Shown here piece after piece: positions 729-18,633 of a DNA stretch of 64,000 bases (position 1 is the stretch's first letter; every line of letters starts with the position of its first letter). A program made the position numbers and the translations under genes. The notes under the pieces were generated by a model. The model had not been told where the DNA came from. It ran no database searches and was given only the letters and a program-made list of their open reading frames with translations. Origin of the DNA: a bacterium (GTDB lineage: Bacteria; Vulcanimicrobiota; JAZDOK01). Location: NCBI GenBank assembly GCA_043798715.1, contig JAZDOK010000100.1:197645-261644 (forward strand). Reading direction: 5' to 3'.

Positions 729-750
729 AATGGGGACACAATACTATTTA
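729..750. repeat. REP-like sequence (left inverted copy)
   Basis: aatggggacacaatactattta; identical to the reverse complement of 1446-1467. Confidence 0.7.
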
Positions 751-1409
751 TTATTTAGCCTTGGCCTCCCTCGAGGAAGAAATCTCAAGATACGGCCGGT
801 GAGTTCCTCAGCTCTCTCAACGAAGTCATTATTTCCGCATATTCTACCGGTTTTTACCTTTTTTTGTAAACAATCCTTCATCTCTTTCTCAGTGTCCTTG
901 GTTAGAAATTCTCTCCAATCCATCTCCTCTAAATAGAGAGATTCCTTAACTAAGGGGTCTTTGTCTTTCAAGCCGACTCTCCAGGCAGCGCTTGACCATG
1001 TGTAATCCCAGGGTTCCTGCGCCAGTCCAGCCCGCACCGGATTGCGCTCAATGTATCGAACAGCAGCGTAAAGGTGTCTTTCATCAAGAGGACATGAGTA
1101 GAATCTTCCCTGAAATAAATATCCACGGACATCTTGGACGCTGTTGACATTAAATGTGTATCTGCGATGAGCCTCACCAATAGCCCTGGCCAGAGATTTT
1201 TCTTCGGAAGGGACGGCAATGAGATGGATATGGTTGCTCATAAGGCAATAAGCAAGGAATGTGACGCCATGGCGGGAGCCCTGGGATGAAAGCAAATGAA
1301 GATATTCAATACGATTTTGAGCGGAGAAAAAAACATCCTGCGATCTGACGCCGCGTTGTGTTACATGATGAGGATGACCCGGTATAACAATTCTTGCAAT
1401 TCTTGCCAT
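744..1409 (-). CDS. REP-associated tyrosine transposase (RAYT; IS200/IS605-like Y1 HUH transposase)
   Basis: 221 aa. It has a HUH motif (HIHLI) and a downstream Tyr-containing region (RYIERNP) typical of TnpA_REP / Y1 transposases, and it is flanked by inverted REPs. Confidence 0.8.
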   Translation of the reverse strand: MARIARIVIPGHPHHVTQRGVRSQDVFFSAQNRIEYLHLLSSQGSRHGVTFLAYCLMSNHIHLIAVPSEEKSLARAIGEAHRRYTFNVNSVQDVRGYLFQGRFYSCPLDERHLYAAVRYIERNPVRAGLAQEPWDYTWSSAAWRVGLKDKDPLVKESLYLEEMDWREFLTKDTEKEMKDCLQKKVKTGRICGNNDFVERAEELTGRILRFLPRGRPRLNNK

Positions 1410-1475: not shown

Positions 1476-2954
1476 TTACATCCCCAATCCAGCTAAAAAG
1501 CTCTTGGCCACGGAGAAGGTCCAGGAGGTGAAGGCGGGGAGGAGGCCGAGGGCGGCGGCGGCCAGGGCGGAGACTATTATGACGACGGCGCAGGGGGCGG
1601 GGATGCGGATGGGTTCCTGGTTTTTCGGCTCCACCAGGTAGGCCTGGCGGAGGACGCCGAGGTAGTAATAGAGCGAGATGACGCTGGTCAGAATACCGAT
1701 TAAGGCCAGGAGGTAGAGTTTTTCCCCGCAGGCCGAGGCGAAGAGGTAGAACTTGCCGATGAAGCCCGAGAGAGGCGGAAGGCCCGCCGCGGAGAGAAGG
1801 GTAATCGCCAGGACGAAGGCCAGGGCCGGCGAGCGCCTTCCCAGCCCGGCGAAGTTTTCAATCCTGTCGGAACCGGTGGCCTCCTCTACTAAGAACACCA
1901 CGGCGAAGGCCCCCATCGCGGTGAGGGCATATATTACAATATAGAATAGCGCGGCCCCGAGCCCTTCGGCCGAACCTGCGGCCAGGGCGGTCAGAAGGTA
2001 GCCCATGTGGGCCACGCCCGAGTAGGCCAGCATCCTCTTGATGGAGGTCTGGGGCAGGGCGGCCAGGTTTCCCACCAGCATCGAGAGAAGCGAGAGCACC
2101 GCGAAAAGAAAGACCCACTCCGCCTTAAAAGGCGAGAGCGCCGTGAAGAAGAGACGCAGGAGAATGACAAGCCCCGCCGCCTTGGGCCCGGCGGCGATGA
2201 AGGCGGTGATGGGGGTGGGCGCGCCCTCGTAGACATCGGGGGCCCACATATGGAAGGGCGCTGCGATGATTTTAAAGCCGACCCCGGCCAGCAGAAATGC
2301 GATTCCCAGGAGCCAGACCGGTGAGAAATCGGCGCTGAAGGAAGGAGAAAGAAGAATCATGGAAAGGCGGGTGGAGCCGCTCAAGCCGTAGATCAGGCTC
2401 AGCCCGTAGAGGAAGAAGACCGAGGATAAAGCTCCCAGGATAAAATACTTAAGACCCGCCTCGCTGGAGCGGGACTCTTTCTTTTTAGAGGCTGCCAGCA
2501 CGTACATCGGGATGGACATGAGTTCGATCGAGAGAAAGAGCGTGACCAGCTCCCCGGCCGAGGCCGTGAGGAGCATCCCGCAGGCGATGAATAAAATTAG
2601 AATTAAGGGGACACAATACTTAATTCCTTGTGTTTTGCTAATTAAGTTTTGTGTCCCCTCAGTCATGCTGAGGAGAACGGCCAGGGCCGCAATCAGAAGG
2701 AAGGTGAGCTTGAAAAAGAGGGCCAGGTGGTCTAGGATGAAAAATCCCTTAAAGAGTGAGAGCTGGTCGTCCCAGAGAGTGGCCGCAGCCAGGCCTGCCA
2801 GGACGATCCCGAAGAGGGAAATATTGCCGAGCGCCTTTTTCCCTTTTACCCAGAAAGCATCCAAAAGAAGCACCAGGACGGCAGTCACCAGAACGATGAG
2901 TTCCGGGGAGAGAGGGCGCAGGGCCCTCCATATTTCAAGGTAATTGAAGGTCAA
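1476..2954 (-). CDS. nuoN: NADH-quinone oxidoreductase subunit N (antiporter-like), carrying an in-frame REP-like insertion
   Basis: 492 aa polytopic protein of the NuoN/ND2 family and the last gene of the nuo operon. Residues ~98-117 (EGTQNLISKTQGIKYCVPL) are encoded by the palindrome at 2604-2659. Confidence 0.85.
   Translation of the reverse strand: MTFNYLEIWRALRPLSPELIVLVTAVLVLLLDAFWVKGKKALGNISLFGIVLAGLAAATLWDDQLSLFKGFFILDHLALFFKLTFLLIAALAVLLSMTEGTQNLISKTQGIKYCVPLILILFIACGMLLTASAGELVTLFLSIELMSIPMYVLAASKKKESRSSEAGLKYFILGALSSVFFLYGLSLIYGLSGSTRLSMILLSPSFSADFSPVWLLGIAFLLAGVGFKIIAAPFHMWAPDVYEGAPTPITAFIAAGPKAAGLVILLRLFFTALSPFKAEWVFLFAVLSLLSMLVGNLAALPQTSIKRMLAYSGVAHMGYLLTALAAGSAEGLGAALFYIVIYALTAMGAFAVVFLVEEATGSDRIENFAGLGRRSPALAFVLAITLLSAAGLPPLSGFIGKFYLFASACGEKLYLLALIGILTSVISLYYYLGVLRQAYLVEPKNQEPIRIPAPCAVVIIVSALAAAALGLLPAFTSWTFSVAKSFLAGLGM
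2604..2659. repeat. REP-like imperfect palindrome inside the nuoN coding sequence
   Basis: The arm aattaaGGGGACACAAtACTTAATT, a 14-nt loop, and the arm AATTAAGTtTTGTGTCCCC match 18 of 19 positions. The shared GGGGACACAATACT core is also present in the RAYT-flanking REPs. Confidence 0.65.
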
Positions 2955-4468
2955 TGGAAACTACCCCCAAAAATCGTCAGGAATTGCATAACGGAGATCC
3001 TGGCCGTGTCTATGATGAATGATGGGTGGAGGCCGAAGAGGAGGATGGAAAGAAGGAGGAGCGCCAGGGGCCATTTTTCGATTCCGGCCAGATCCGATAG
3101 CGCCTCATATTCAGGTTTGAGAGGGCCGAAGAAGATTTTCTGGACGGCCCTGAGGATATAGATGGCGGCCAGAAGCAGGCTCAGGATGGAGAGGGCCGCC
3201 AGGATGGGAAAGCTCTCAAAAGCGCCCACAAAGACCAGAAATTCAGCCACGAAACCGCTCATCCCGGGAAGCCCCAGCGCCGCCAGTCCCCCCGCCGTCA
3301 TCAGGGCGGCCAGGAAGGGCAACCGGGTGGCCAGCCCCCCCAGGCTCTCAAGGTTCCGGGAGTGGGCTTTTTCATAGACCAATCCGGCTCCGCAGAAGAG
3401 GAGGGCGGTGATGACCCCGTGGGAGACCATCTGGAAAAGGGCGCCGCTGATGCCGGTCGGATTTAAGCAGGCCAGCCCCAGCAGGACGAAACCCATGTGG
3501 CTTATGCTCGAGTAGGCTATGAGATACTTGAGATCCTTCTGGGCCATGGAGCACAGCGCCCCGTAGAGAATGTTGACGACGGCCACCACCGCCAGGAACT
3601 TAAGCGCCCAGGCGGCCCCCTGTGGCAGGAGTCCCATGCCGACGCGCATGATCCCGTAGGCGCCCATCTTGAGGAGTAGTCCGGCCAGGAGCATGGAGAC
3701 GGCGGTGGGGGCGGCGGAGTGCCCGTCCGGAAGCCAGGTGTGGAACGGGAAGATCCCGGCCTCGATGCCGAAGCCGACGAAGAAGAGGAGGAAGAGAATC
3801 TTCTGCTGTAAGAGTGGCAGAGCCGCCCCCGCCTGCATGAGGGCCGCCAGATCAAAGGTGCGGGCGCCGGAAAGGACGTTTATAGCCAGGATTCCCAGGA
3901 GGATGAGCCCCCCTCCGAGCTGGAGGTAGAGCATGAGCTTCATGGCCGAATCTTCCTTCCGGACCGGATGAAGCGGGTCCTCCCTGTTGGAGCCCCAGAT
4001 GCCGATGAGGAAATACATGGGTACGGATGCCAGTTCGTAAAAAAGGAGGAAGAAGAAGAGGTCGAGGGAGAGGAAAAGGCCGAAGGAGCCCGCCAGCACC
4101 AGAAGGATCAGGACGAAATATTTTTTTTCATCCGTGCGGATATGGGAGGAGGCGAGGATGGCCGCCAAGGCCAGGATGCCCGAAAGAAGAATAAGCGGGG
4201 AATTTAAACCGTCCAATCCCAGGTGCCAGGAGATTCCCCAGGAGGGAAACCAGGGCAGGCGCTCTTCAAACCAGAAGGAGGCCGGGTTGGCTCCATTCAG
4301 GTACGGGTTGTAAAGCCAGAAGACGGCCGCCGAAAGCACAAAGGAAAAACTCGCGGCCAGAAGGGCGGTCAATTTAACGGCCCCGGCCCGGCCCTTCGGA
4401 AGAAGAAGCACGATGAGAGCGCCGCCCAGCGGAATGAGGATGAGAAGAAAGAGGAGCGGGATATTCAT
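2951..4468 (-). CDS. nuoM: NADH-quinone oxidoreductase subunit M
   Basis: 505 aa polytopic NuoM/ND4-family protein. It overlaps the nuoN start in an ATGA arrangement. Confidence 0.85.
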   Translation of the reverse strand: MNIPLLFLLILIPLGGALIVLLLPKGRAGAVKLTALLAASFSFVLSAAVFWLYNPYLNGANPASFWFEERLPWFPSWGISWHLGLDGLNSPLILLSGILALAAILASSHIRTDEKKYFVLILLVLAGSFGLFLSLDLFFFLLFYELASVPMYFLIGIWGSNREDPLHPVRKEDSAMKLMLYLQLGGGLILLGILAINVLSGARTFDLAALMQAGAALPLLQQKILFLLFFVGFGIEAGIFPFHTWLPDGHSAAPTAVSMLLAGLLLKMGAYGIMRVGMGLLPQGAAWALKFLAVVAVVNILYGALCSMAQKDLKYLIAYSSISHMGFVLLGLACLNPTGISGALFQMVSHGVITALLFCGAGLVYEKAHSRNLESLGGLATRLPFLAALMTAGGLAALGLPGMSGFVAEFLVFVGAFESFPILAALSILSLLLAAIYILRAVQKIFFGPLKPEYEALSDLAGIEKWPLALLLLSILLFGLHPSFIIDTARISVMQFLTIFGGSFH

Positions 4469-4474
4469 ATAGTG

Positions 4475-6448
4475 CTAGACGCCTCCCTTCAGCCATGAGA
4501 GGAAGCTGTCAAAGGGCCTTTGGAACAGGGGCCAGAGGGAGCCGTCCCAGAGGCCGGCCCCCAGAAGGAGGGCCAGTGCTCCAAGCAGGAAAACCAGGGC
4601 ATAAAACTGGACATAGCCGGTCTGCTCCCGGCGGATGGCCTCTCCGAAGGAGCGCATGCCGTCGCCGAACCTAAGCGTCAGGCGGTCCAGAATTTTACGG
4701 TCGAACAAAGAGGCCAGGCTGGCCGCCGAAAGAAGGCCCCTGGCGCTGAGCCATGAGAAGAGGTCGTCCATTCCGTACTTGTTTTCCAAAACGGCATACA
4801 AGGCGCGGTAGCGGTTCCTGAAAGATTCCTCCGGGATAACTTTCATCCGATAGATGAGAAAGGCCAGGAAAAGGCCCAGAATGGCCAGCCCCAGAGAAAG
4901 AGCCAGGGGAAAGTAGTTGACGCCGCTCTCCGCCGCGTTTATCTCGGCCAGGGGGGTGGCCCTCAGGAATTCTCCTAAGCCGTGAAACCAGGGCGTCTGG
5001 ACGAGGCCGGCCCCGGCGGCCAAAAGAGCCAGGACGAGCACGGGGAGGGACATGACGGGAGGCGCTTCGCGGGCTGTCGTATCTTCCCGGTGTTTCCCGG
5101 AGAAAACCAGGTAGTACATGCGGAAGATATAAAAAGCGGTGAGAAAGACCGTGGCAAAAGCCAGGATTTTTAAGACCGGATGACCGGGGAAGGCCCAGGC
5201 CGCCGAGAGAATTTCATCCTTGGACCAGAAGCCGGAGAAGGGCGGAATGCCCGCCAGGCAGAGACAGCCGACCAGGCAGGCAAGGCCCGTCAAGGGCATC
5301 TTTTTCCCCAGGCCGCCCATCTGCCTCATGTCGTTCGTGTGCAGGACGTGGATGACGCTCCCCGCGCAGAGGAAGAGAAGGGCCTTGAAAAAGGCGTGGG
5401 TCATCAGGTGGAAAGTTCCGGCCAGGTAGCCTCCCAGGCCGAGGGCCAGCATCATATATCCGAGCTGGCTCACGGTGGAGTAGGCCAGGACGCGCTTGAT
5501 ATCGTTTTGCACCACGGCCAGGGTGGCCGCCAGGGCCGCCGTGACCGCACCGATGTAGGCGATTACCAGGAGGGCCAGGGGGGCGCTCTGGAAGAGGATG
5601 TAGAGACGGGCCACCAGGAAGACCCCCGCGGCCACCATGGTTGCAGCATGGATAAGGGCGCTCACCGGGGTCGGGCCCTCCATGGCGTCCGGAAGCCAGA
5701 TGTGGAGCGGGAACTGGGCGGACTTGCCCGCCGCCCCGCAGAAGACGAGGAGGGCGCAGAGCGTAAGGAACGACCCGAGGGCCGGATCCTGCGCCCACCC
5801 GGAGATCATTCCGCCGAGCTTGATGAGGTCGAAGGTGCCGGCATTGGTGGCGAGGAGAATGATCCCGGCTAAAAGTCCCAGGTCGCCGAAACGGGTCACG
5901 ATAAAGGCCTTCTTGGCGGCGTCGGCCGCCGCCTTCTTCTGGTACCAGAAGCCTATAAGAAGGTATGAGCAGACCCCCACCAGCTCCCAGGCCATGTAGG
6001 CCTGCACCAGGTTGGGGCTTACGACCAGCGTCAGCATGGAGGCGGCAAATAGGGACATGAAGGCGTAATAGCGCGAGAATGAGGCCGCTCCCTCCTCCTT
6101 CATGTAGCCGGCCGAGTAAATCTGGATGAGAAGGGCCACCAGCGAAACCAGCGCCAGCATCAGGGCGGCCAGGTTGTCCACCAGAAGACCCAGGCCGACT
6201 TCAAGGTTGCCGATGTAAAGCCAGTTGAATCCTGATTCTAAAGGCGGCGCGTAGGGAGAATATAGACGGGCCATAAGGGTTCCCAAAGAGAAAACAAGGG
6301 CGAAAAAGATTCCCAGCAGGGAAAGAAAAACACTGAGGTTCCTCCTTTTGAGGGTGAAAAGGCAGATGAGGACAAAGGCCGCCGCCGGCAGGGCCGGGAT
6401 CAGCCAGGCGTTCGTCAGAAAAAATTCCAGGTCGAAACCGAAGACCAC
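4475..6448 (-). CDS. nuoL: NADH-quinone oxidoreductase subunit L
   Basis: 657 aa NuoL/ND5-family protein with a long C-terminal extension (amphipathic helix region). Confidence 0.85.
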   Translation of the reverse strand: MVFGFDLEFFLTNAWLIPALPAAAFVLICLFTLKRRNLSVFLSLLGIFFALVFSLGTLMARLYSPYAPPLESGFNWLYIGNLEVGLGLLVDNLAALMLALVSLVALLIQIYSAGYMKEEGAASFSRYYAFMSLFAASMLTLVVSPNLVQAYMAWELVGVCSYLLIGFWYQKKAAADAAKKAFIVTRFGDLGLLAGIILLATNAGTFDLIKLGGMISGWAQDPALGSFLTLCALLVFCGAAGKSAQFPLHIWLPDAMEGPTPVSALIHAATMVAAGVFLVARLYILFQSAPLALLVIAYIGAVTAALAATLAVVQNDIKRVLAYSTVSQLGYMMLALGLGGYLAGTFHLMTHAFFKALLFLCAGSVIHVLHTNDMRQMGGLGKKMPLTGLACLVGCLCLAGIPPFSGFWSKDEILSAAWAFPGHPVLKILAFATVFLTAFYIFRMYYLVFSGKHREDTTAREAPPVMSLPVLVLALLAAGAGLVQTPWFHGLGEFLRATPLAEINAAESGVNYFPLALSLGLAILGLFLAFLIYRMKVIPEESFRNRYRALYAVLENKYGMDDLFSWLSARGLLSAASLASLFDRKILDRLTLRFGDGMRSFGEAIRREQTGYVQFYALVFLLGALALLLGAGLWDGSLWPLFQRPFDSFLSWLKGGV

Positions 6449-6459
6449 TCCTGTCCTCC

Positions 6460-6777
6460 TTATCCCTTGAGTTTGTCGGCCTCATCCACCTGGATGGAGC
6501 CCGAGTTTCTGTACAGGCAGACGACGATGGCCAGCCCCACTGCCGCCTCGGCGGCCGCCACCGCCAGGATGAAGATGGCGAAGACCTGCCCGGCGGCCTG
6601 GGAGGCGGGCGAAAAGTTTGATGAACGCGAGAAGGCCACCAGGTTTATATTGACCGCGTTGAACATGAGTTCCAGGCCCATGAGCACTCCGATGGCGTTC
6701 CGGCGGGTGAGGACTCCGTAGAGCCCCACACAGAAAAGAAGAAAGGCCAGGACCAGGTAGTGCGTAAGACCCACCAT
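6460..6777 (-). CDS. nuoK: NADH-quinone oxidoreductase subunit K
   Basis: 105 aa with three TM helices. It resembles NuoK/ND4L and sits between nuoJ and nuoL. Confidence 0.85.
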   Translation of the reverse strand: MVGLTHYLVLAFLLFCVGLYGVLTRRNAIGVLMGLELMFNAVNINLVAFSRSSNFSPASQAAGQVFAIFILAVAAAEAAVGLAIVVCLYRNSGSIQVDEADKLKG

Positions 6778-7265
6778 CAGCGTTCCTCCTTCCGGGCCAG
6801 GAAGAGGGCCCCCACGCAGGCGGCGAGGAGCAGAACCGAGGTGAGCTCAAATGGCAGGGCAAAGTCCCTAAGAAGCGCCCCGGCCAGATCCAAAAGTGGA
6901 ATCCTCGCGCCCCAGGAGGCCGGCCAGGGGGCCGAGGCCAAAACCAGTAAGCTCAAAACGAGCATGACGGCTCCAAGGAAGGCGGCAGTCAATTCCTGGC
7001 CGTTGAAGGCGGCCCTGGAGGGGTCGTAGATGCGATGGGTCAGCATGATGGCAAAGAGGATGAGTACCGAGACGGCACCCACTGAGATCAGCACCTGGAG
7101 GCCCGCCAGGAGCTCGGCGTCCAGGGTGAGGTAGATGCCGGAGACGGCCACGAAGGCCGCGATGAGAAAGAGGGCGGCATGAAAGATGTTCCGCAGGCGC
7201 ACCGCCAGAAGCGCGGAGATGAGCAGGAGTGCCGAGAAAATATAGAACAGGATGGTCTGCTTCAT
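6777..7265 (-). CDS. nuoJ: NADH-quinone oxidoreductase subunit J
   Basis: Track ORF 6777..7313. The likely true start is MKQTILFYIF at 7265, 2 nt after the stop of the upstream nuoI-like gene. The protein has the NuoJ/ND6-like hydrophobic profile. Confidence 0.75.
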   Translation of the reverse strand: MKQTILFYIFSALLLISALLAVRLRNIFHAALFLIAAFVAVSGIYLTLDAELLAGLQVLISVGAVSVLILFAIMLTHRIYDPSRAAFNGQELTAAFLGAVMLVLSLLVLASAPWPASWGARIPLLDLAGALLRDFALPFELTSVLLLAACVGALFLARKEER

Positions 7266-7267
7266 TA

Positions 7268-9166
7268 TCAGACGCGCTCCTTCAGCGTTTTTGGAGGCTG
7301 GGTTTTGAGACACAGCCGGTCTTTGTCGTAGAGCATTTTCTCCTTTTGGTATTCGGCCAGTTCATACCGATCGCTCATGAAGAGGGCCCCCGTCGGGCAC
7401 TCCTCGGCGCAGAGGCCGCAGAACATGCAGGTTCGGATGTCGAGGTCATACTCCGAGACGATCTCGCGCCCGTCCTGGCTGATCTCGGTTTTAACCTTGA
7501 TTACCCGGTCGGGACAGACCTCCTCGCAGATGCCGCAGCCCACGCAGAGCCCCGCCTGGCAGGTGAGACAGCTTCTGGCCTCCGCCAGCATCTCATTCTC
7601 CCCGGGCTCCTCTTCCACCTCCCCGAAGTGGCCCCGGCGCTCATCAGGGGGAAGCAGGGAGCCCGTGCGGTGGATGCGCGAAGGATCCGCGAAGCGGGCC
7701 ATGAGGCCCGCCTCCTCGCGGAGGTAGCTGAAGCTTTCAATGGGCTCCTTCGTTTTTCGGAGGAAGCGATGGATGGCTTGGGCCGCCTTCTTGCCCTGGG
7801 CGATGGCCGAAATCACCGTGCCGGCGCCGCTGGCGGCGTCGCCCCCGGCAAAAACACCGGGGAGGGCGGTCGAGGCGTCCTCATCGTTGAAAATAATTTT
7901 GCTGTTGCCGTCTTTTAAGGCATCCGGAATCCCCTCGCCGTCCAGCTTCTGTCCCACGGCCAGGATGACGCTGTCGGCTTCCACCGTAAATTCCGAGCCG
8001 GGCAGCGGCTCGGGGCGGCGCCTTCCGGAGGCGTCCGGGAGGCCGAGGGCCATGCGGAGACACTCAATCTTTTCCAGGCGCCCCTGGCCGAGGAAGCGGA
8101 CGGGGGTGGCCTGGAACAGGAAACGAACCCCCTCTTCCTCCGCGCAGGCGACCTCCTCGGGATGGGCCGGCATCTCGGCGCGCGAGCGGCGGTAGATGAG
8201 CGTCACCTGCGAGCCCAGGCGCAGGGCGCTTCGGGCCGCGTCGAGGGCCGAGTTCCCCCCGCCGACCACGGATACATTTTTTCCGATGGAGGCTGGCTTT
8301 CCCATCGCCAGGTCCCGGAGAAAATCAATGGCGGAAAGAACTCCCGGAAGGGAGGCGCCCTCGGCTTTCATCCCCGACTCCTTCCAGAGGCCGGTCGCAA
8401 GGTAGACGGCACTGAAGCCCTCGTCCTTCAGGCTCTCCAGCGAGAAATCCCGCCCGAGGGCCTTTCCGGTCAAAATCTCGACACCCAGGTTTTTGAGGTC
8501 CTCTATCTCGCCGGCCAGAACCTCCCGGGGGAGGCGGTAGGCGGGGATGCCGTAGCGCATCATCCCGCCGGCCTCGGGGAGACGCTCAAAGACCGTCGTC
8601 TTGTAGCCCAGCCGGGCCAGGTCCTGGGCGGCGGCCAGGCCCGAGGGTCCCCCTCCGACCACGGCCACGCGCTCGGGGTGCCTGATGGGAGGCGGCTCAA
8701 TCTTTTCGGTGTTGGCGCGGCCCCAATCGGCCAGGAAGCGCTTTATGAGGCGGATGGGCACCGCCTGGTCCTTCGACCGTCCCCTCTTGCACAGGTGCTC
8801 GCAGGGTGCCGGACAGACCCGCCCCAGGGAGGCCGGGAAGGGGTAGTGGCCTTTGAGCAGGCGGTAGGCCTCGCGATATTTTCCATCGGCGGCCAGGGTC
8901 ACGTAGCCCCGCACGTCGGTTAAGGCCGGGCAGGTCTCCATGCAGGAGGCCGCCGGAATATTATTAAGGAACAGGCTTTTTTCGCTGGCGGTCTTTGCGT
9001 TGAAGAAATCCTTCACCATTGGCAGGCCGCGGAAGCGCGGGGCCAGCGTATCTTTTTCCCAAGGATACTGAAGGGTTATGGAGGGACGGAAGAAGTTGCG
9101 GAGCGTCACCCCGAGGCCCGCCAGGAGATACCAGATGCCCTTTGAAAAGCGAATGATCGTTTTCAT
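7268..9166 (-). CDS. nuoI: NuoI homologue with an inserted GltD-like NAD(P)H:FAD/FeS oxidoreductase module (chimeric NuoI)
   Basis: - N-terminus: MKTIIRFSKGIWYLLAGLGVTLRNFFRPSITLQYPWEK...RFRG has the NuoI N-terminal signature.
- Insert: a ~450-aa glutamate-synthase-small-subunit-like region with Cys-rich FeS motifs (ASCMETCP, RVCPAPCEHLC), an FAD-binding GGGPSGL motif and a second nucleotide-binding site (VVGGGNSALD).
- C-terminus: the canonical NuoI 2x[4Fe-4S] motifs (CLTCQAGLCVGCGICEEVCP and CMFCGLCAEECP).
- Start assignment: I assign the start to the ATG at 9166, which gives an ATGA overlap with the nuoH stop. The track ORF extends upstream to 9298. Confidence 0.8.
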   Translation of the reverse strand: MKTIIRFSKGIWYLLAGLGVTLRNFFRPSITLQYPWEKDTLAPRFRGLPMVKDFFNAKTASEKSLFLNNIPAASCMETCPALTDVRGYVTLAADGKYREAYRLLKGHYPFPASLGRVCPAPCEHLCKRGRSKDQAVPIRLIKRFLADWGRANTEKIEPPPIRHPERVAVVGGGPSGLAAAQDLARLGYKTTVFERLPEAGGMMRYGIPAYRLPREVLAGEIEDLKNLGVEILTGKALGRDFSLESLKDEGFSAVYLATGLWKESGMKAEGASLPGVLSAIDFLRDLAMGKPASIGKNVSVVGGGNSALDAARSALRLGSQVTLIYRRSRAEMPAHPEEVACAEEEGVRFLFQATPVRFLGQGRLEKIECLRMALGLPDASGRRRPEPLPGSEFTVEADSVILAVGQKLDGEGIPDALKDGNSKIIFNDEDASTALPGVFAGGDAASGAGTVISAIAQGKKAAQAIHRFLRKTKEPIESFSYLREEAGLMARFADPSRIHRTGSLLPPDERRGHFGEVEEEPGENEMLAEARSCLTCQAGLCVGCGICEEVCPDRVIKVKTEISQDGREIVSEYDLDIRTCMFCGLCAEECPTGALFMSDRYELAEYQKEKMLYDKDRLCLKTQPPKTLKERV

Positions 9167-10293
9167 GCAGGTGGCAACCTCCAGAGAACCTGTGAGCAGG
9201 CGATGATCAGGTTGAGAAAGGCAAACGGCAGGAGTACCTTCCAGCTGAATGACATGAGCTGATCGGGCCTGAGGCGCGGGAAGGTCCAGCGGATCCACAT
9301 GAAAAGCAGGATGAGAAGATAGACCTTGAGGAGGAAGACCACGATCCCGAGCGCCTGGAGGGCGTAGGGGAAGTGAAGGAATGAAACGATCTTATCGTCC
9401 AGTCCGAAGGGAAGCGTCCAGCCTCCCATAAAGAGCGTCACCGCGATGGATGAGGCGATGAACATGTTGGTGAATTCCGCCAGGAAAAACATGGCGAACT
9501 TCATCCCGCTGTACTCGGTGTTGAAGCCCTGCACCAGCTCCTGTTCCGCCTCCGGGATGTCGAAGGGCGGGCGGTTTATCTCGGCGGTGGAAGCGATGAG
9601 ATAAACCAGAAAACCGATGAACTGCGGGATTAGGAACCAACCCAGGCTGATCTGGGCCTCGACTATGCCGGCCATGCTGAGGGTGCCGGCCGCCAGGACC
9701 GGCCCCAGGAAGGCGAAGAAGAGAGGGACCTCGTAGCTTATTATCTGCGCCGCCGAACGCATGGCGCCCAGGAGGGAATACTTGTTGTTTGAAGCGTAGC
9801 CCCCCATCACGATGGCGATCACCGAGAAGGTGCCCACCGCCATGAGGTAGAGAACGCCGATGTTGAGGTCTTTCACGATGAGGCCCGGGCCGAAGGGCAG
9901 GACCACGAAGGCCATCATGCAGGCCGTGAATACGACGACCGGGGCGATTATGAAAACCCAGCGGTCGGCTTTGGTGGGAATGATGTCCTCCTTGAGGAGG
10001 AGCTTCAAGGTGTCGGCGGTGGTCTGAAGGAGCCCGCCGGTCCATATACAAATGCGTGCCAGGAAGCGCGGCCCGGTGAGCATGGGCCCCAGCCGCCGCT
10101 GGATGCGGCCGCAGACCTTGCGCTCAAGCCAGATGAGGAAGAGCGCGGTGAGGAGGATGAAGACCAGCACTATTATGGCCGAAAGGAGCATGTAGGCGAA
10201 ATCAAGTAGAGGCTGCCACGCCTGCCATCCCCGCCCGGCCAGCCAGGCGGTCAGGGGGCGGTAGAAAATGATATCTTTTAAATACTGCTCCAT
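9163..10293 (-). CDS. nuoH: NADH-quinone oxidoreductase subunit H
   Basis: 376 aa polytopic NuoH/ND1-family protein (LWERKV-like N-terminus, conserved quinone-site region). Confidence 0.85.
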   Translation of the reverse strand: MEQYLKDIIFYRPLTAWLAGRGWQAWQPLLDFAYMLLSAIIVLVFILLTALFLIWLERKVCGRIQRRLGPMLTGPRFLARICIWTGGLLQTTADTLKLLLKEDIIPTKADRWVFIIAPVVVFTACMMAFVVLPFGPGLIVKDLNIGVLYLMAVGTFSVIAIVMGGYASNNKYSLLGAMRSAAQIISYEVPLFFAFLGPVLAAGTLSMAGIVEAQISLGWFLIPQFIGFLVYLIASTAEINRPPFDIPEAEQELVQGFNTEYSGMKFAMFFLAEFTNMFIASSIAVTLFMGGWTLPFGLDDKIVSFLHFPYALQALGIVVFLLKVYLLILLFMWIRWTFPRLRPDQLMSFSWKVLLPFAFLNLIIACSQVLWRLPPA

Positions 10294-10298
10294 CGCCT

Positions 10299-11393
10299 CT
10301 ACCTGTCTATCTCGGGGAGGATGATGTCCAGGCTGCCGATGCAGGCCATGATATCGGAGATTCGCCCGCCGCGCACCAGGTGCGGGAGGACGCTCAGGTT
10401 TGAAAAAGAGGGTGCCCGGAATTTTAGCCGCCAGGGTTTTTCGCTGCCGTCTGAAACTATAAAGACGCCGGTATCGCCGCGGGGGGCCTCGATGCGGGAG
10501 AAAGCTTCCCCCTTGGGCGGCTTGATCCGCTGGGGAAGGATGGTGCGGTATCGGCCCTCCGGGACTTTGTCCAGCGCCTGCTCAAGGATCCTGACCGACT
10601 CCTCCATCTCCTTCATACGGACCAGGTAGCGGTCCCAGACATCGCCGTGCGCACCGGTTGGTATATTGAAGGAAAATTCCGGATATACCGAGTAGGGCTC
10701 GGCCTTCCGGATATCGAAGGCGATGCCGGAGCCGCGAAGAGAGGGCCCGCTCACGCCGCAGGCCACGGCCAGGTCGGGATTTAAGATTCCGATTCCGCGC
10801 GTCCGGGCCAGAAAGATGGGGTTTTCGGTCACCAGGGCGTGGTATTCAGGGAGGCCCGCTTTCATGGCCGCAAGAAAGAGCCTCATTTTTTCCAGAAAGC
10901 CGGGGGGCAGGTCCTGGGAGACTCCGCCGAAGCGGATGTAGTTATAGGTGAGGCGGGCGCCGCAGGTCATCTCGAATATGTCCATGATGCGCTCCCGCTC
11001 CCGGAAGGCGTAGATGAAGGGGGTGGTGGCCCCCAGGTCGAGAAGCATCGAGCTGAACCACATGAGGTGGCTGGCCAGGCGGTTGAGCTCGGCCATTAAC
11101 ACCCGGATGTATTCCGCCCGGGGCGGCACGGGGATTCGGGCCAGCTTTTCCATCGCCAGGCAGTAGGCCAGGTTATTGGACATGGAGGAGAGGTATTCGA
11201 AGCGGTCGGTTACGGGGATGAACTGCAGATAGGTGCGGTTCTCGGCGATCTTCTCGAGGGCGCGGTGCAGAAAGCCGATATGCGGCACCGCTTCGAGGAC
11301 CACTTCGCCGTCGAGCGTGAGGACGAGCTTCAGCACCCCGTGAGTGCTCGGGTGCTGGGGCCCCATGTTCAGGGTGTATTCCTCGGTTCTCAT
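10299..11393 (-). CDS. nuoD: NADH-quinone oxidoreductase subunit D (49 kDa)
   Basis: 364 aa. The N-terminus MGPQHPSTHGVL is typical of NuoD/Nqo4 and of [NiFe]-hydrogenase large-subunit-like folds. Confidence 0.9.
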   Translation of the reverse strand: MRTEEYTLNMGPQHPSTHGVLKLVLTLDGEVVLEAVPHIGFLHRALEKIAENRTYLQFIPVTDRFEYLSSMSNNLAYCLAMEKLARIPVPPRAEYIRVLMAELNRLASHLMWFSSMLLDLGATTPFIYAFRERERIMDIFEMTCGARLTYNYIRFGGVSQDLPPGFLEKMRLFLAAMKAGLPEYHALVTENPIFLARTRGIGILNPDLAVACGVSGPSLRGSGIAFDIRKAEPYSVYPEFSFNIPTGAHGDVWDRYLVRMKEMEESVRILEQALDKVPEGRYRTILPQRIKPPKGEAFSRIEAPRGDTGVFIVSDGSEKPWRLKFRAPSFSNLSVLPHLVRGGRISDIMACIGSLDIILPEIDR

Positions 11394-11989
11394 GGGGCTG
11401 GTACCCGCCTTCCGGACTCTTTGGGGGCGTCCTCTGAACTTACTTCAGCCGGGGAATCAGGGCGGCGGATGAGGTTGGGGTGGATGAAATCCCGGAGCAT
11501 GGGGTGGCCCTCCCAATCCTCCGGGAGGAGGATGCGCCGGAGATCCGGGTGCCCGTCGAAGCGCACACCGAAGAGGTCATAGACCTCCCGCTCATGCCAG
11601 TTGGCGGCGGGCCAGAGGGCGGTCACGGAATCGAGGACAGGATTTTTTCTGTCAAGTCTGGTCTTGATAATTATATGATGGCCTTTACCCATCGAGTAGA
11701 GATGGTAGAGCACTTCAAGTGCCTTCAGGCGATCCACGTCTTGCCCTTCGACTGCTCGACAGGCTCGCAGCTCAGGGCGAACGGATGTCTCTAGGAACTC
11801 CAGGCGGTCTATGGCCGAGATGAAAAAAAGGTAGTTGAAATCAAGGGAAGGCTCCGTCTTAAGGAAAGCGGCGACCTCCGGAAGTTCCGGAGACGGGATA
11901 CGGATGCCGTCGGAATTATCCGGATCGGCCTCCAGGGGCTTTCCCGGAAAGGCGTCCCGCAATTTTTCAAGTATTTCATTTCTGGTCAT
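11390..11989 (-). CDS. nuoC: NADH-quinone oxidoreductase subunit C (30 kDa)
   Basis: The likely start is MTRNEILEKL at 11989; the track ORF begins 17 codons upstream. The protein is NuoC-like. Confidence 0.8.
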   Translation of the reverse strand: MTRNEILEKLRDAFPGKPLEADPDNSDGIRIPSPELPEVAAFLKTEPSLDFNYLFFISAIDRLEFLETSVRPELRACRAVEGQDVDRLKALEVLYHLYSMGKGHHIIIKTRLDRKNPVLDSVTALWPAANWHEREVYDLFGVRFDGHPDLRRILLPEDWEGHPMLRDFIHPNLIRRPDSPAEVSSEDAPKESGRRVPAP

Positions 11990-11993
11990 CGTT

Positions 11994-12488
11994 TCATGCT
12001 TTGGTCCTCTTGATTTTTTCGCGCAGGGCCATGATGCCATGCATGAGGGCCTCGGGCCGCGGAGGGCAGCCGGGGATATAGACGTCCACCGGGATTATCT
12101 TGTCCACGCCCTTCAAGACGGAGTAGGAGTCGTAGTAGAAAGGACCGCCGTTTATGGCACAGCCGCCCATGGCCACGACGTAGCGGGGCTCGGCCATCTG
12201 CTCATAGAGGAGCTTGACCCGCGGGGCCATCTTGAGGGTGACCGTGCCGGAGACGATCATGATGTCCGACTGCCGCGGGGTGGCCCGAAAGATCATCCCC
12301 AGGCGATCCAGGTCGTAGCGGGCGGCCCCCGTGCTGATCATCTCGATGGCGCAGCAGGCCAGGCCGAAGAGCATGTACCAGAGGGAGGATTCCTTGGCCC
12401 ATTTAAAGAGAAAATCCAGCGGGGCCATCACTATGGCGCCCCCGGCGGTCTTCTCGCGATAGACGGAGATTTTTCCCGCTAGGTCCAT
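11994..12488 (-). CDS. nuoB: NADH-quinone oxidoreductase subunit B (20 kDa, N2 cluster)
   Basis: The conserved core is [15 protein letters not shown]...GCPP. The likely start is MDLAGK at 12488. The Gly/Arg/Pro-rich 73-aa upstream extension in the track ORF is probably not translated. Confidence 0.8.
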
Positions 12489-12835
12489 TCCATGGCCCCC
12501 GTTCTCCAGGCCCAGGCATAAGCCACCCCCAGCAGGCCGAGAAAGATGAGGACTTCGAGGAGACCGGCCCAGCCCAGGGTGCGGAAAAGAACCGCCCAGG
12601 GGATAAGGAAGGCCGCCTCCACGTCGAAGACGACGAAGAGGACGGCGAAGAGGTAATAGCGGACGTTGAACTGAAAGCGGGCCTCCCCGAAGGGCTTCTC
12701 CCCGCACTCATAGGTCGAGAGCTTCTCCTCGGAGGGCCTCCGGGGGCGGAGCAGCCACGAGGTGGCAAAGGCCGCCAGCACGAGAAAGACCCCCGTGAAG
12801 AGGAAGAGGCCGACATATCCGTATTCCAGAGTCAT
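12479..12835 (-). CDS. nuoA: NADH-quinone oxidoreductase subunit A
   Basis: 118 aa with three TM helices. It has a NuoA/ND3-like sequence (YECGE motif) and is the first gene of the operon. Confidence 0.85.
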
Positions 12836-16042: not shown

Positions 16043-18412
16043 GTGATAATCGAGTCAGGGAAAAATCAAACCAGGCTCAGGCTCAGAATCCGCGGAGTAG
16101 TTCAGGGAGTGGGCTTCAGGCCCTTCATCTATGGACTGGCCGGGCATCATCGCCTGCGGGGCTTTGTTTTAAATGACGCCGAGGGCGTTCTGCTGGAGGT
16201 GGAAGGCCCGCAGGAACAGGTGAGAGCTTTCCTGGAGGAACTCCCCCGACAGGCTCCGCTGCAGTCCGTCATCAGTCAAATGGAGCCTGATTGGCTCTCC
16301 CCGGCCGGATATGGGACCTTTGAGATCCGCGAAAGCGTGAGGGGTGCCTCCCATTCGACCCTGGTCTCTTATGACATCGCCGTCTGCGCCGACTGCCTGA
16401 GCGAGATGCGCGACCCGACCGACCGCCGTTACGGCTATCCCTTCATCAACTGCACTAACTGTGGCCCCCGCTTTACGATTATAAAGGACATCCCCTACGA
16501 TCGGAACAAGACCACGATGTCCCTCTTTCCCATGTGCCCCGACTGCCGGGAGGAGTACGAGGATCCGCGCTCCCGGCGTTTCCACGCCCAACCCAACGCC
16601 TGCTTTGCCTGCGGCCCCTCTCTTACTCTGATGGATAACCGCGGAAATCTGGTTGCTGGAAGCGGGCTGATGAGCGGGCCGGCCGGGGGAAAGGACGTCT
16701 CTGAGAAAAAAGAGCTGAACAGGGAGGCCATCGCCCGGACGGCCCTGCTTCTCGGGGAGGGAAAGATCGTAGCCATCAAGGGCCTGGGCGGCTTTCACCT
16801 GGCCTGCGACGCCGAAAATCAAGAGGCGGTCTTCGCCCTGCGGAGGAGAAAAGTGCGCGAGGGCAAACCCTTCGCCCTCATGGCGCCGGACATCCGGTGG
16901 ATAAAAAATATCTGCCGGGTCAGCTCCCTTGAAGAGAATCTCCTTGAATCCGCCAGGCGGCCCATCGTACTTCTCAGAAAAAAAACTCCCTCCACCGTCG
17001 CCCCCGAGGCCGCACCCTCCCAGAAATTTCTGGGAGTCATGCTGCCCTATACGCCGCTGCATTATCTCCTTATGGAATCCGCCGGCAAAATCCTGATCAT
17101 GACCAGCGGCAATCTAAGCGACGAGCCCATCGCCTGGGAAAACGCGGAAGCGCTCGAACGCCTGAGTGCCATCGCCGATTATTTTCTCCTGCACAACCGG
17201 GATATCCACATCCGCTGCGACGACTCGGTCACCAGAATCTTTTCCGGAGCGGAACTTCCCCTCAGGCGCTCCCGCGGCTATGTCCCCTTCCCGGTTGAAT
17301 TTCCTGGAGGTTTTAAGAAGCCCCTCTTGGCCTGCGGGGGTGAACTGAAGAACACTTTCTGCTTGGGGCGGGCGGGCTTTGCCTTCGTGGGACACCACAT
17401 CGGGGACCTGGAGAACGCCGAGACGCTTCTTTCTTTTGAGGAGGGGGTCGCCCACTTTCAGAGGCTCTTCTCCATACGACCAGAAGTCGTGGCCCATGAT
17501 CTCCACCCCGAGTACCTTTCCACCAAGTATGCCCTGGCCGTAGGCTCCGGGAAAAAGATCGGGGTGCAACACCACCACGCCCACATCGCCTCCGTTATGG
17601 CCGAGCACGGCCTGGACGGGCTCCGGGATAAGGTCCTCGGGGTCGCCCTCGACGGGGCCGGCCTCGGGGAGGATGGAACGCTCTGGGGAGGGGAGTTCCT
17701 GCTGGCGGACTTTATGGGCTATGAGCGGGTGGCTCACTTTCAATCTTTCCGCCTCCTTGGAGGGGAAAAAGCCGTGCGGGAGCCCTGGCGGATGGCCCTC
17801 TCCTGCCTGTACGCGGTTTACGGCGAAGACCTCTGGAATCTTAAAATTCCCTTCCTGGCCCGCCTTAAGGATCGGGCTCTTCCCCACTGGCCGCTTTTGC
17901 GGAAGATGCTGGATGAGGGCCTGGGAAGCCCCTGGGCCTGCGGGACGGGACGTCTTTTCGACGCGGTTTCGGCGCTGCTTGGAATCTGCGAGGAGGCGCG
18001 CTACGAGGGGGAAGGCGCCGTCGGCCTGGAGATGGCCTGCGGGAAACCGCACGGCAGGCTCTATCCGCTTGAATTCGAGGGCTCCGGCCCGTATTTGATC
18101 CGGGTGGAGGAATTAATCGGAGCGGTCGTGAAAGATATCGCGACGGGGAGACCTGTTTCGGAAATTTCTTCCAATTTTCACCGGGCGCTGGCGGCGGGGA
18201 GCGCCCGGATGCTGGTTCTTCTCCGGAAGGAGAGCGGAATTCGCCGGGTGGTTCTGGGCGGAGGGGTTTTTCAGAACACTACCCTTCTTTCCCTCCTGCT
18301 CCGGCGTCTTGAGAAAGAAGACTTTGAGGTTCTTCTCCCCCGCCTTCTCCCACCCAATGACGGCGGCCTCTCCCTGGGGCAGGCGGCCGTGGCGAATGCG
18401 AGGTGTTCCTGA
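16043..18412 (+). CDS. hypF: [NiFe]-hydrogenase maturation carbamoyltransferase HypF
   Basis: 789 aa comprising an acylphosphatase domain, two Zn-finger CxxC pairs, and YrdC and Kae1-like domains. Confidence 0.9.
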   Translation: MIIESGKNQTRLRLRIRGVVQGVGFRPFIYGLAGHHRLRGFVLNDAEGVLLEVEGPQEQVRAFLEELPRQAPLQSVISQMEPDWLSPAGYGTFEIRESVRGASHSTLVSYDIAVCADCLSEMRDPTDRRYGYPFINCTNCGPRFTIIKDIPYDRNKTTMSLFPMCPDCREEYEDPRSRRFHAQPNACFACGPSLTLMDNRGNLVAGSGLMSGPAGGKDVSEKKELNREAIARTALLLGEGKIVAIKGLGGFHLACDAENQEAVFALRRRKVREGKPFALMAPDIRWIKNICRVSSLEENLLESARRPIVLLRKKTPSTVAPEAAPSQKFLGVMLPYTPLHYLLMESAGKILIMTSGNLSDEPIAWENAEALERLSAIADYFLLHNRDIHIRCDDSVTRIFSGAELPLRRSRGYVPFPVEFPGGFKKPLLACGGELKNTFCLGRAGFAFVGHHIGDLENAETLLSFEEGVAHFQRLFSIRPEVVAHDLHPEYLSTKYALAVGSGKKIGVQHHHAHIASVMAEHGLDGLRDKVLGVALDGAGLGEDGTLWGGEFLLADFMGYERVAHFQSFRLLGGEKAVREPWRMALSCLYAVYGEDLWNLKIPFLARLKDRALPHWPLLRKMLDEGLGSPWACGTGRLFDAVSALLGICEEARYEGEGAVGLEMACGKPHGRLYPLEFEGSGPYLIRVEELIGAVVKDIATGRPVSEISSNFHRALAAGSARMLVLLRKESGIRRVVLGGGVFQNTTLLSLLLRRLEKEDFEVLLPRLLPPNDGGLSLGQAAVANARCS

Positions 18413-18633
18413 TGTGTCTGGCGATTCCGGTCCGGGTTCTCTCCATCGAGGAGAACGCGGCTCTCATAGAATTCGGGGGCGTGCGGCGCCCGGTGGATCT
18501 TCGGCTCCTGGAGAATGTTCAGGTGGGGGACTATGTGCTGGTCCACGCGGGCTTTGCCATCCAGCGGCTCGACGAGGAAGAAGCCAGGAAAACCCTTGAA
18601 CTTTTTAGAGAGATTTCAGGCGAACGGCCATGA
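18403..18633 (+). CDS. hypC: Hydrogenase maturation factor HypC
   Basis: 76 aa. The MCLAIP N-terminus is the HypC hallmark. It overlaps the hypF stop. Confidence 0.85.
   Translation: MFLMCLAIPVRVLSIEENAALIEFGGVRRPVDLRLLENVQVGDYVLVHAGFAIQRLDEEEARKTLELFREISGERP

Follow-up and report, generated by a model that had tools for sequence, protein, structure and literature searches.

A NuoI subunit carrying an inserted, permuted flavoprotein module in a nuo operon without nuoEFG: a candidate electron-entry module of complex I

The fusion gene and its operon

We analysed a 64-kb stretch of bacterial DNA (hereafter the window; part of contig JAZDOK010000100.1, a metagenome-assembled genome (MAG) contig of Vulcanimicrobiota), in which the gene for the complex I subunit NuoI, at 7268-9166 on the minus strand, is fused with a flavoprotein. 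The gene lies within a nuo operon whose ten other products (NuoA, B, C, D, H, J, K, L, M, and N) were assigned by NCBIfam models, several of them exceeding the curated cut-offs (NuoL, 643 vs 556; NuoN, 417 vs 333). nuoH stands directly after nuoD, no nuoE, nuoF, or nuoG is present in the operon, and no NuoE/F/G-like product was found among the scanned large open reading frames (ORFs) of the window, which comprised nearly all those of at least 150 aa. A first-pass annotation, made from the letters of this DNA, had proposed a nuoA-to-nuoN operon at 12835-1476 on the minus strand without these three genes, and this was borne out by the NCBIfam matches, the ORF map, and the ORF scan. The operon and the parts of the fusion gene are as follows (res, residues of the fusion protein; pLDDT, predicted local distance difference test score; Fe-S, iron–sulfur).

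1476..12835, minus strand: nuoA-B-C-D-H-[I::flavoprotein]-J-K-L-M-N operon, from the ORF map and an NCBIfam match for each subunit
11994..12488, minus strand: nuoB, NF005012 at 238 bits, likely start MDLAGK; the orthologue at locus L001 has 163 aa
10299..11393, minus strand: nuoD, NF008974 at 521 bits vs a cut-off of 522
7268-9166, minus strand: NuoI::flavoprotein fusion gene, 632 aa plus stop codon, a single ORF without interruption
9011..9166, minus strand: NuoI N-terminal part, res 1-52, with amphipathic helix, QYPWEK, and APRFRG strand; aligns with the N-termini of Nqo9 and Escherichia coli NuoI
8954..9010, minus strand: linker 1, res 53-71, from the NuoI strand to the insert; pLDDT <50 at 55-69, variable in alignments A1 and A2
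8711..8953, minus strand: Fe-S part b of the insert, res 72-152, with C75, C79, C118, C122, C126, and K142; Fer4_20 profile positions 29-111 only
7757..8671, minus strand: flavin adenine dinucleotide (FAD) and NAD(P)H domains, Pyr_redox_2 and Pyr_redox; pLDDT about 85-93
7652..7750, minus strand: linker 2, res 473-505; pLDDT <50 at 474-494, the split point in related genomes
7553..7651, minus strand: Fe-S part a of the insert, res 506-538 (ERRGHFGEVEE...EARSCLTC), with C533 and C536; the permuted first ~30 residues of Fer4_20
7268..7552, minus strand: NuoI ferredoxin core and C-terminal tail, res 539-632, matched by the NuoI model and TYKY/NuoI chains; all Cys invariant

The fusion gene starts with an ATG at 9166, which overlaps the nuoH stop by 4 nt, and it is flanked by nuoH (9163-10293) on one side and nuoJ on the other. 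This start agrees with that of the 76%-identical orthologue P0002. A GTG start at 9298, which would give 676 aa, was rejected because of its 135-nt overlap with nuoH and its conflict with the orthologues. The product, previously given as 633 aa, has 632 aa, the former figure including the stop codon, and is 100% identical to the NCBI MAG protein P0001.

In the Pfam analysis, the protein matched Fer4_20 at residues 72-152 (1.2e-18, 67.4 bits vs a gathering threshold of 25.8), Pyr_redox_2 at 166-458 (5e-30, 105.4 bits vs 26.1), Pyr_redox (8.8e-17), and the 2×[4Fe-4S] ferredoxin domain Fer4_7 at 541-594. The NCBIfam model of NuoI, TIGR01971, matched in two stretches, the N-terminus and residues 540-618, of which the latter was the best, and complex I TYKY/NuoI chains in the PDB matched residues 540-619 (1e-23 to 1e-13). 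The domain annotation proposed with the first-pass reading, namely Fer4_20, Pyr_redox_2, and the NuoI ferredoxin domains, was found in full. When residues 53-527 were removed, the remainder could be aligned over its full length with Nqo9 and E. coli NuoI. All NuoI hallmarks are present: the N-terminal helix, YP.E, RFRG, two CxxCxxCxxxCP motifs (C541/544/547/551 and C580/583/586/590), and the YE.AEY tail (YELAEY...LYDKDRL, followed by the stop codon at 7268-7270). In the N-terminal part, Y34, P35, R46, and G47 are invariant across 22 family members, and the ratio of nonsynonymous to synonymous substitution rates (dN/dS) is 0.13. The insert of ~475 aa stands in place of the short loop that joins the RFRG strand to the first CxxCxxCxxxCP motif; it carries the FAD motif GGGPSGL at residues 171-177, the NAD(P)H motif GGGNSALD at 302-309, and YRR at 325-327. 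As judged from the sequence, the product of 7268-9166 is confirmed to be a real NuoI with an inserted FAD/NAD(P)H/2×[4Fe-4S] module of the GltD/NfnB kind, and the earlier assignment of a genuine NuoI N-terminus and two NuoI [4Fe-4S] motifs is upheld by the NuoI models, the TYKY/NuoI chain matches, and the alignment.

The quinone-binding part of the complex was also inspected. NuoD keeps the quinone-site His (GPQHPSTHG) and Tyr (FEY) and lacks the NiFe cysteines, and NuoB keeps the ligands of cluster N2 (CC...GGC...GCPP); these residues were judged against the motifs of Thermus thermophilus. By these motifs, the Q-module (NuoD Q site and NuoB N2 ligands) appears intact.

Circular permutation, cluster ligands, and coenzyme type of the insert

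The best sequence match of the fusion protein was NfnA (9bov_A, E=1.7e-122, 39% identity over residues 74-538), and the best fold matches were NfnA (9bov_A and 9n5u_A) and StnC (8oh5_C), with Foldseek E-values of about 1e-49. The cut-offs for the small subunit of glutamate synthase were missed (TIGR01317 and TIGR01318, 195 bits vs 448 and 265 vs 483, respectively), that of the NfnB-type NCBIfam equivalog was not reached, and gltB was not found in the window.

The Fer4_20 match at residues 72-152 begins only at profile position 29. When residues 497-540 (part a) were joined to residues 74-162 (part b) in an artificial construct, Fer4_20 positions 3-111 were matched in one stretch with 80.7 bits, compared with 64.0 bits for part b alone. 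This a+b construct was collinear with Thermotoga maritima NfnB (4ylf_B, 12-130) and Pyrococcus furiosus NfnI-L (5jca_L), as well as with Azospirillum brasilense GltD (6s6s_G) and pig DPD. The single-stretch match and the collinearity with solved proteins indicate that the insert is a circular permutant of a GltD-type unit, in which the ~30-residue Fe-S start (ERRGHFGEVEE...EARSC533LTC536) is placed after the flavin domains; in canonical GltD, NfnB, and DPD, the domain begins with a segment of the ERRGHFGEVEE...EARSCLTC type. The earlier description of a complete GltD-like unit therefore holds for the fold, the FAD and NAD(P)H sites, and the Cys motifs, whereas the unit is not collinear and only five of its cysteines are N-terminal. 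In the chains 9bov_A, 9n5u_A, and 8oh5_C, the construct is split likewise (b at 103-177 and a at about 537-567), and the permuted order is therefore common to the insert and NfnA/StnC.

The insert offers seven Cys ligands, namely C75, C79, C118, C122, and C126 on the N-terminal side and C533 and C536 after the flavin domains, with K142 as the eighth ligand by alignment with Lys170 of NfnA. C79, C118, C122, and K142 align with Cys108, Cys147, Cys151, and Lys170 of NfnA cluster A7. Judged from the homologous DPD and NfnB, the ligands of the distal cluster would be C75, C126, C533, and C536. Four residues lie between C536 and C541, where the ligands of the NuoI core begin. The ligands and the FAD and NAD(P)H motifs are invariant in 22 relatives at ~40% identity (alignment A2), and the same applies to K142.

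In Csac NfnABC (PMC11829005) and Sporomusa ovata StnABC (PMC10482914), cryo-electron microscopy and mutagenesis showed that the NfnA/StnC input domain binds NADPH and FAD, that this FAD is non-bifurcating and forms the terminus of a linear chain, and that electrons exit via two [4Fe-4S] clusters, A7/C7 and then A6/C6. Three Cys and one Lys (K170) ligate the FAD-proximal cluster; the Lys is essential and separates NfnA/StnC from bifurcating NfnB, where a Glu is found (PMC11829005, PMC10482914). The window protein resembles these enzymes (9bov, 9n5u, 8oh5) in the b-flavin-a order, the predicted 3Cys+Lys proximal cluster, the YRR motif for NADPH, and the fusion of the flavin domain, which in NfnA/StnC serves as a non-bifurcating input, to a complex-I-type Fe-S subunit. 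Nfn/Stn, however, are soluble enzymes in which the domain is joined to a NuoG/Fdh-like polypeptide and supplies a NuoEF-like bifurcating core (BfuBC) with electrons, whereas the module of the window sits in NuoI of a membrane-bound nuo complex. No NuoG/Fdh-like domain was detected in the fusion protein by Pfam, and no BfuBC-type NuoEF-like genes were found among the scanned window ORFs. The modules of NfnB (NfnSL), GltD, and DPD share the fold, FAD, NADPH, and two [4Fe-4S] clusters with the insert, but they are collinear (a-b-c), and their fourth proximal ligand is Glu or Gln.

At the end of the strand that follows the second GGG motif stands YRR (VTLIYRRSRAEMPA), which is likewise found in NADPH-dependent homologues, and the motif YRRxxxEMPA is common to the window enzyme and the NADPH enzymes NfnA and StnC. 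In Rossmann folds, an Arg at the end of this strand serves to bind the 2'-phosphate, and an acidic residue makes NAD the favoured coenzyme. According to this rule, the YRR motif suggests that the window enzyme should prefer NADPH. The first-pass annotation had left the choice between a pyridine-nucleotide and a ferredoxin-linked domain; the motif favours a pyridine nucleotide, likely NADPH, and not ferredoxin. Across the family, YRR is coupled with Lys at the proximal ligand in 13 of 13 scored copies, including L001, and the window itself has YRR and K142, whereas LE is coupled with His (32/33) in most Actinomycetota/Coriobacteriia copies (e.g., L103 and L013, compared with the YRR-type L001 and L026). 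This division predicts NADPH-type and NADH-type sub-families, suggesting that the family comprises YRR/Lys enzymes of the former type and LE/His enzymes of the latter.

Distribution and variant forms

A protein search returned, besides P0002, about 25 full-length relatives at 38-42% identity, all of which carry the NuoI N-terminus, the insert, and both NuoI Cys motifs. On the contigs of P0002, P0003, P0005, P0012, and P0062, the order is nuoA-B-C-D-H-[fusion]-J-K-L-M-N, with no nuoEFG in the operon. Using an Anaerosomatales MAG copy as the query, all 120 matches listed were full-length fusions at 65-97% identity, all from MAGs. After clustering at 50% identity, about ten full-length fusion clusters appeared within the top 150 of 27,242 GltD-like matches.

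The motif C-L-x-C-x4-C-x-G-C-x2-C-x3-C-P, which occurs once in the window with 0 occurrences expected by chance, was scanned as a DNA pattern against the contigs of one genome per species. The results showed at least 120 loci in species-representative genomes; 120 loci of 8 kb were classed by local phmmer with the Nuo proteins of the window, as follows.

Fused: 73 of 120 listed (79 scored when the six earlier loci L001-L006 are included)
Fusion interrupted by the edge of the 8-kb locus: 31 of 120 listed
Two-ORF split: 5 of 120 listed
Internal deletion: 2 of 120 listed
Unrelated: 9 of 120 listed

In 111 of the 120 loci listed, the fusion is in nuo context, flanked by nuoD/H and/or nuoJ/K where the flank falls within the locus, and nuoEFG is missing from the operon. 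The survey of distribution that had been suggested at the outset therefore yields at least 111 nuo-embedded copies. The titles of the carrier records are mostly those of Actinomycetota MAGs, namely Coriobacteriia including Anaerosomatales/OPB41 (L022 and L103 are labelled Anaerosomatales), Aquicultor, and Geothermocultor; the other carriers are Chloroflexota/Anaerolineae, Planctomycetota/Brocadiia, Bipolaricaulota, Elusimicrobia, Armatimonadota, and Vulcanimicrobiota.

Compared with the L001 orthologue (76% identical), dN/dS was 0.20 overall, 0.14-0.21 in the insert, and 0.13-0.15 in the NuoI parts, indicating that the fusion is under purifying selection. In a neighbour-joining tree of the flavin module, which has no support values and is deeply saturated, the window and L001 were placed not in the main clade of NuoI inserts but close to non-Nuo homologues. 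An independent origin of the window insert is not claimed from this tree, given the lack of support values, the saturation, and the identical insertion point, which instead points to a common origin of the inserts.

Five loci carry the fusion as two adjacent ORFs, namely L026 (Chloroflexota), L089 and L120 (Planctomycetota), L122 (Brocadiia), and L077 (Armatimonadota). The coordinates of two of these split loci are as follows.

L026 2600-4678, minus strand: split fusion
L089 4287-6219, plus strand: split fusion

The split point corresponds to the low-confidence linker at window residues of about 474-494 (pLDDT <50). ORF1 (~490 aa) contains the NuoI N-terminus, Fe-S part b, and the flavin domains, and ORF2 (~147 aa) contains Fe-S part a and the NuoI core; both halves are retained adjacent and intact, and the distal [4Fe-4S] cluster would take its Cys ligands from two polypeptides. 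NuoD and NuoH of the window were closest to those of the split-form locus L026 (3.8e-143 and 3.5e-129, respectively), and the window insert is 44-47% identical to the split ORF1 proteins P0011, P0014, and P0021.

In a second type of insertion (type B; P0062 and P0070), the same permuted module lies between the two NuoI Cys motifs, in the context nuoABCDH-I-JKLMN. The ends of the b-c-a module are adjacent, so that it can be spliced into different loops. A differently built GltD fusion, P0154 (L127 3234-5099), is found in an operon of the order H-B-C-D(NiFeSe_Hases)-fusion, and is probably an Mbx-like case of the kind remarked upon in PMC4758237.

Some carriers differ further. In two Actinomycetota MAGs, the fusion is shorter, about 516-531 aa (L063 3893-5441, minus strand; L108 5526-7119, plus strand), has no equivalent of window residues about 275-430, the NAD(P)H-binding domain, and stands in the gene order D-I-H, not D-H-I. 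L002 (12550-20834) and L005/L006 (12874-18888) have four to five antiporter-like (Proton_antipo_M) subunits, not three, which hints at enlarged pumping modules. In L005/L006 (1-1778; the P0012 lineage), Wood-Ljungdahl-type genes (MTHFR, a CooC-like ATPase, and a pterin-binding CdhD-like protein) lie a few kb from the nuo operon.

Predicted electron entry, alternative explanations, and neighbouring genes

We propose, with a probability of roughly two in three, that the fused NuoI acts as a self-contained electron-entry module of an 11-subunit complex I and replaces the non-homologous NuoEFG N-module. In this scheme, NAD(P)H, predicted to be NADPH for the window enzyme, would donate a hydride to the FAD of the inserted flavoprotein with its two Rossmann domains. 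Single electrons would then move from FAD to the Lys-ligated proximal [4Fe-4S] cluster (C79, C118, C122, and K142) and on to the distal [4Fe-4S] cluster (C75, C126, C533, and C536). From there they may step directly onto the NuoI clusters, since C533/C536 end four residues before C541; the first three Cys of NuoI motif 1 presumably bind the entry cluster N6a. The NuoI clusters would pass the electrons to N2 in NuoB and finally to (mena)quinone, the presumed acceptor, at the NuoD/NuoH site, and this electron flow would drive proton pumping by NuoL, NuoM, and NuoN, with the membrane arm unchanged. A flavin/pyridine-nucleotide entry domain on the N2-feeding subunit, serving as a substitute for the N-module, had been suggested in the first-pass annotation, and the suggestion is now supported by the conservation of the motifs, the homology to NfnA/StnC, and synteny.

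Several points weigh against this proposal. The whole-protein score to TIGR01971 (97.6 bits) is below the curated cut-off (113.05), the match being interrupted by the insert. The AlphaFold2 model of the fusion is of moderate quality (pLDDT 74.3, predicted template modelling score 0.71), and the inter-cluster distances are estimated from chain connectivity alone. The absence of nuoEFG applies to the scanned ORFs of the window and to the related operons. The NADPH preference of the window enzyme is likely by analogy of its motif, all members of the family are known here from genes alone, and the sequence does not fix whether NADPH is oxidised or NADP+ is reduced at the expense of the proton-motive force.

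The proposed module can be compared with known inputs of the complex I family. It would do the same job as the canonical N-module (NuoE, NuoF, and NuoG), namely pass electrons from pyridine nucleotide through flavin and Fe-S clusters to NuoI, N2, and quinone. The folds are non-homologous, however, the window having an FAD-binding two-Rossmann GltD fold and the N-module a flavin mononucleotide-binding NuoF fold; the window module has ~475 residues in one polypeptide compared with three subunits, two predicted clusters compared with six to seven, and a predicted use of NADPH compared with NADH. The nuoEFG-less 11-gene core is shared with 11-subunit enzymes such as cyanobacterial NDH-1 with ferredoxin, Fpo with FpoF/F420H2, and those of Desulfitobacterium, Dehalococcoides, and OPB41, in which the donor docks at the NuoI side (PMC11238625, PMC9686372, PMC3144371). 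Where a donor of those enzymes is known, it is a separate protein or subunit, whereas the donor-oxidising domain of the window is covalently within NuoI. In Mbx-like operons of Thermotoga and some proteobacteria, NuoI was described as 'substituted by a flavoprotein related to gltD', and this subunit was proposed as the site of NAD(P)+ reduction (Degli Esposti 2015, PMC4758237). The Mbx-like complexes and the window thus both join a GltD-type flavoprotein to a NuoI-like subunit of a membrane complex of the complex I family. The Mbx-like complex, however, has a hydrogenase/Mbx-type NuoD homologue (NiFeSe_Hases) and the order H-B-C-D-fusion, and its fusion merges the first ferredoxin motif with the GltD motif, whereas the window has a true nuo operon, without an Mrp-type layout, and an equivalog-type NuoD that keeps the Q-site residues and is not of the hydrogenase type.

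Alternative explanations were also considered. Complex I is reversible, and the same machine could run backwards, with the proton-motive force pushing electrons from quinol to NADP+ for biosynthetic NADPH, as in lithotrophs, which we regard as unlikely. The YRR motif is of the type for NADPH, the anabolic coenzyme, and hyp hydrogenase-maturation genes adjoin the operon, so that H2-derived quinol is conceivable; however, nothing in the sequence sets the direction, and among the carriers are many anaerobic Actinomycetota that have Wood-Ljungdahl genes close by, for which oxidation of a low-potential donor is equally plausible. That the complex is driven by ferredoxin and the insert has a side function, as a shunt between ferredoxin and NADP+, a redox sensor, or a structural cap, would agree with the usual assumption for EFG-less complexes (PMC9686372, PMC11238625) and with the NAD(P)+-reducing role proposed for the GltD-related subunit of Mbx-like complexes (PMC4758237). 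The position of the insert in a NuoI surface loop beside the first cluster motif, the predicted wiring by contiguous Cys ligands, and the full set of NAD(P)H, FAD, and cluster motifs under purifying selection all speak against a side function. Electrons that bypass N2 and the Q site could not drive pumping, and we consider it quite improbable that the complex works in this way.

Homology of the domain to NfnB of NfnSL (4ylf_B, 5e-93; 5jca_L) raises the further possibility of a bifurcating flavin, which would send electrons from NADPH both to quinone via the NuoI chain and to a low-potential acceptor such as ferredoxin. The predicted proximal ligand is Lys, as in non-bifurcating StnC/NfnA, and not the Glu of NfnB, a single Fe-S chain leaves the FAD, and no NfnA/NfnS-like partner was found in the operon or among the scanned window ORFs, which makes bifurcation very improbable. 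An assembly chimera or frameshift of two genes, or a decaying pseudo-domain, might be suspected in a window taken from a MAG contig, the more so as the gene is truly two ORFs in five related genomes. The identical architecture, however, recurs in independent NCBI, JGI, ENA, and Logan assemblies, the ORF is uninterrupted, dN/dS is 0.2, all ligands are invariant, and the split forms too have both halves adjacent and intact. Because of the independent assemblies and the dN/dS value, the chimera and the pseudo-domain, the former named at the outset as what would overturn the finding, are practically excluded.

For the family as a whole, we lean slightly towards a widespread class of complex I in which the N-module has been convergently replaced by one permuted FAD/2×[4Fe-4S] domain in NuoI, with NADPH-type, NADH-type, and split versions. 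The GltD-like NADPH input domain itself is already known, having been structurally characterised in Nfn/StnABC, and so are other alternative inputs of the complex I family, namely FpoF, ferredoxin with NdhS, and the Mbx-like GltD subunit (PMC4758237 for the last); what seems to be new is the insertion in NuoI of bona fide nuo operons. Full-text literature searches returned no account of a nuo operon with a NuoI::GltD fusion, although literature beyond the searched collection may exist, and two surveys of complex I (PMC4453560 and bioRxiv 2025.03.13.643058) make no mention of one. Likewise, the full-text literature searched gave no description of the wiring by permutation, the split forms, the alternative insertion, or the two types of coenzyme. 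The only near precedent found was the brief 2015 remark on Mbx-like operons (PMC4758237). The earlier impression of an undescribed architecture thus stands for nuo operons, but the architecture is not unique to this contig and has a partial precedent in the Mbx-like complexes.

For the donor of EFG-less complex I-like enzymes, papers default to 'probably ferredoxin'; for the first OPB41 isolates, nuoNMLKJIHDCBA was listed, NuoEFG was lacking, and ferredoxin was guessed as the donor (PMC9686372). In the carriers described here, the donor site would be encoded in the nuoI gene itself, as a pyridine-nucleotide/FAD/Fe-S input wired by contiguous Cys ligands to the NuoI clusters. If the proposed electron-entry role is true, it would answer what feeds the EFG-less complex I of the carrier organisms, and the complex I family would gain its first proton-pumping NADPH:quinone oxidoreductase. 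The proposal predicts NAD(P)H:quinone activity without NuoEFG in at least 111 species-level genomes. It would also represent a natural case of non-homologous N-module replacement in modular evolution, and the one-polypeptide substitute could serve as a minimal model for structural and engineering work, with the division between YRR/Lys and LE/His as a built-in comparison of coenzyme specificity. Because the fusion genes are labelled 'FAD-dependent oxidoreductase' or 'glutamate synthase beta-like' in databases, we flag a systematic annotation error.

With regard to the neighbouring genes, the program-called nuoB (11994-12707) and nuoJ (6777-7313), both on the minus strand, have GTG starts too far upstream that overlap the adjacent genes; by the lengths of the L001 orthologues, the likely true starts are MDLAGK at about 12488 for nuoB and MKQTILF at about 7265 for nuoJ. 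An ORF for an IS200-like (Y1_Tnp) transposase lies directly downstream of nuoN (744-1409, minus strand). hypF, hypD, and hypE, likely with hypC between them, are located at 16043-20728 on the plus strand, ~3 kb upstream of the nuo operon, and hypF, hypC, and hypD adjoin the nuo operon also in the orthologous contig L001.

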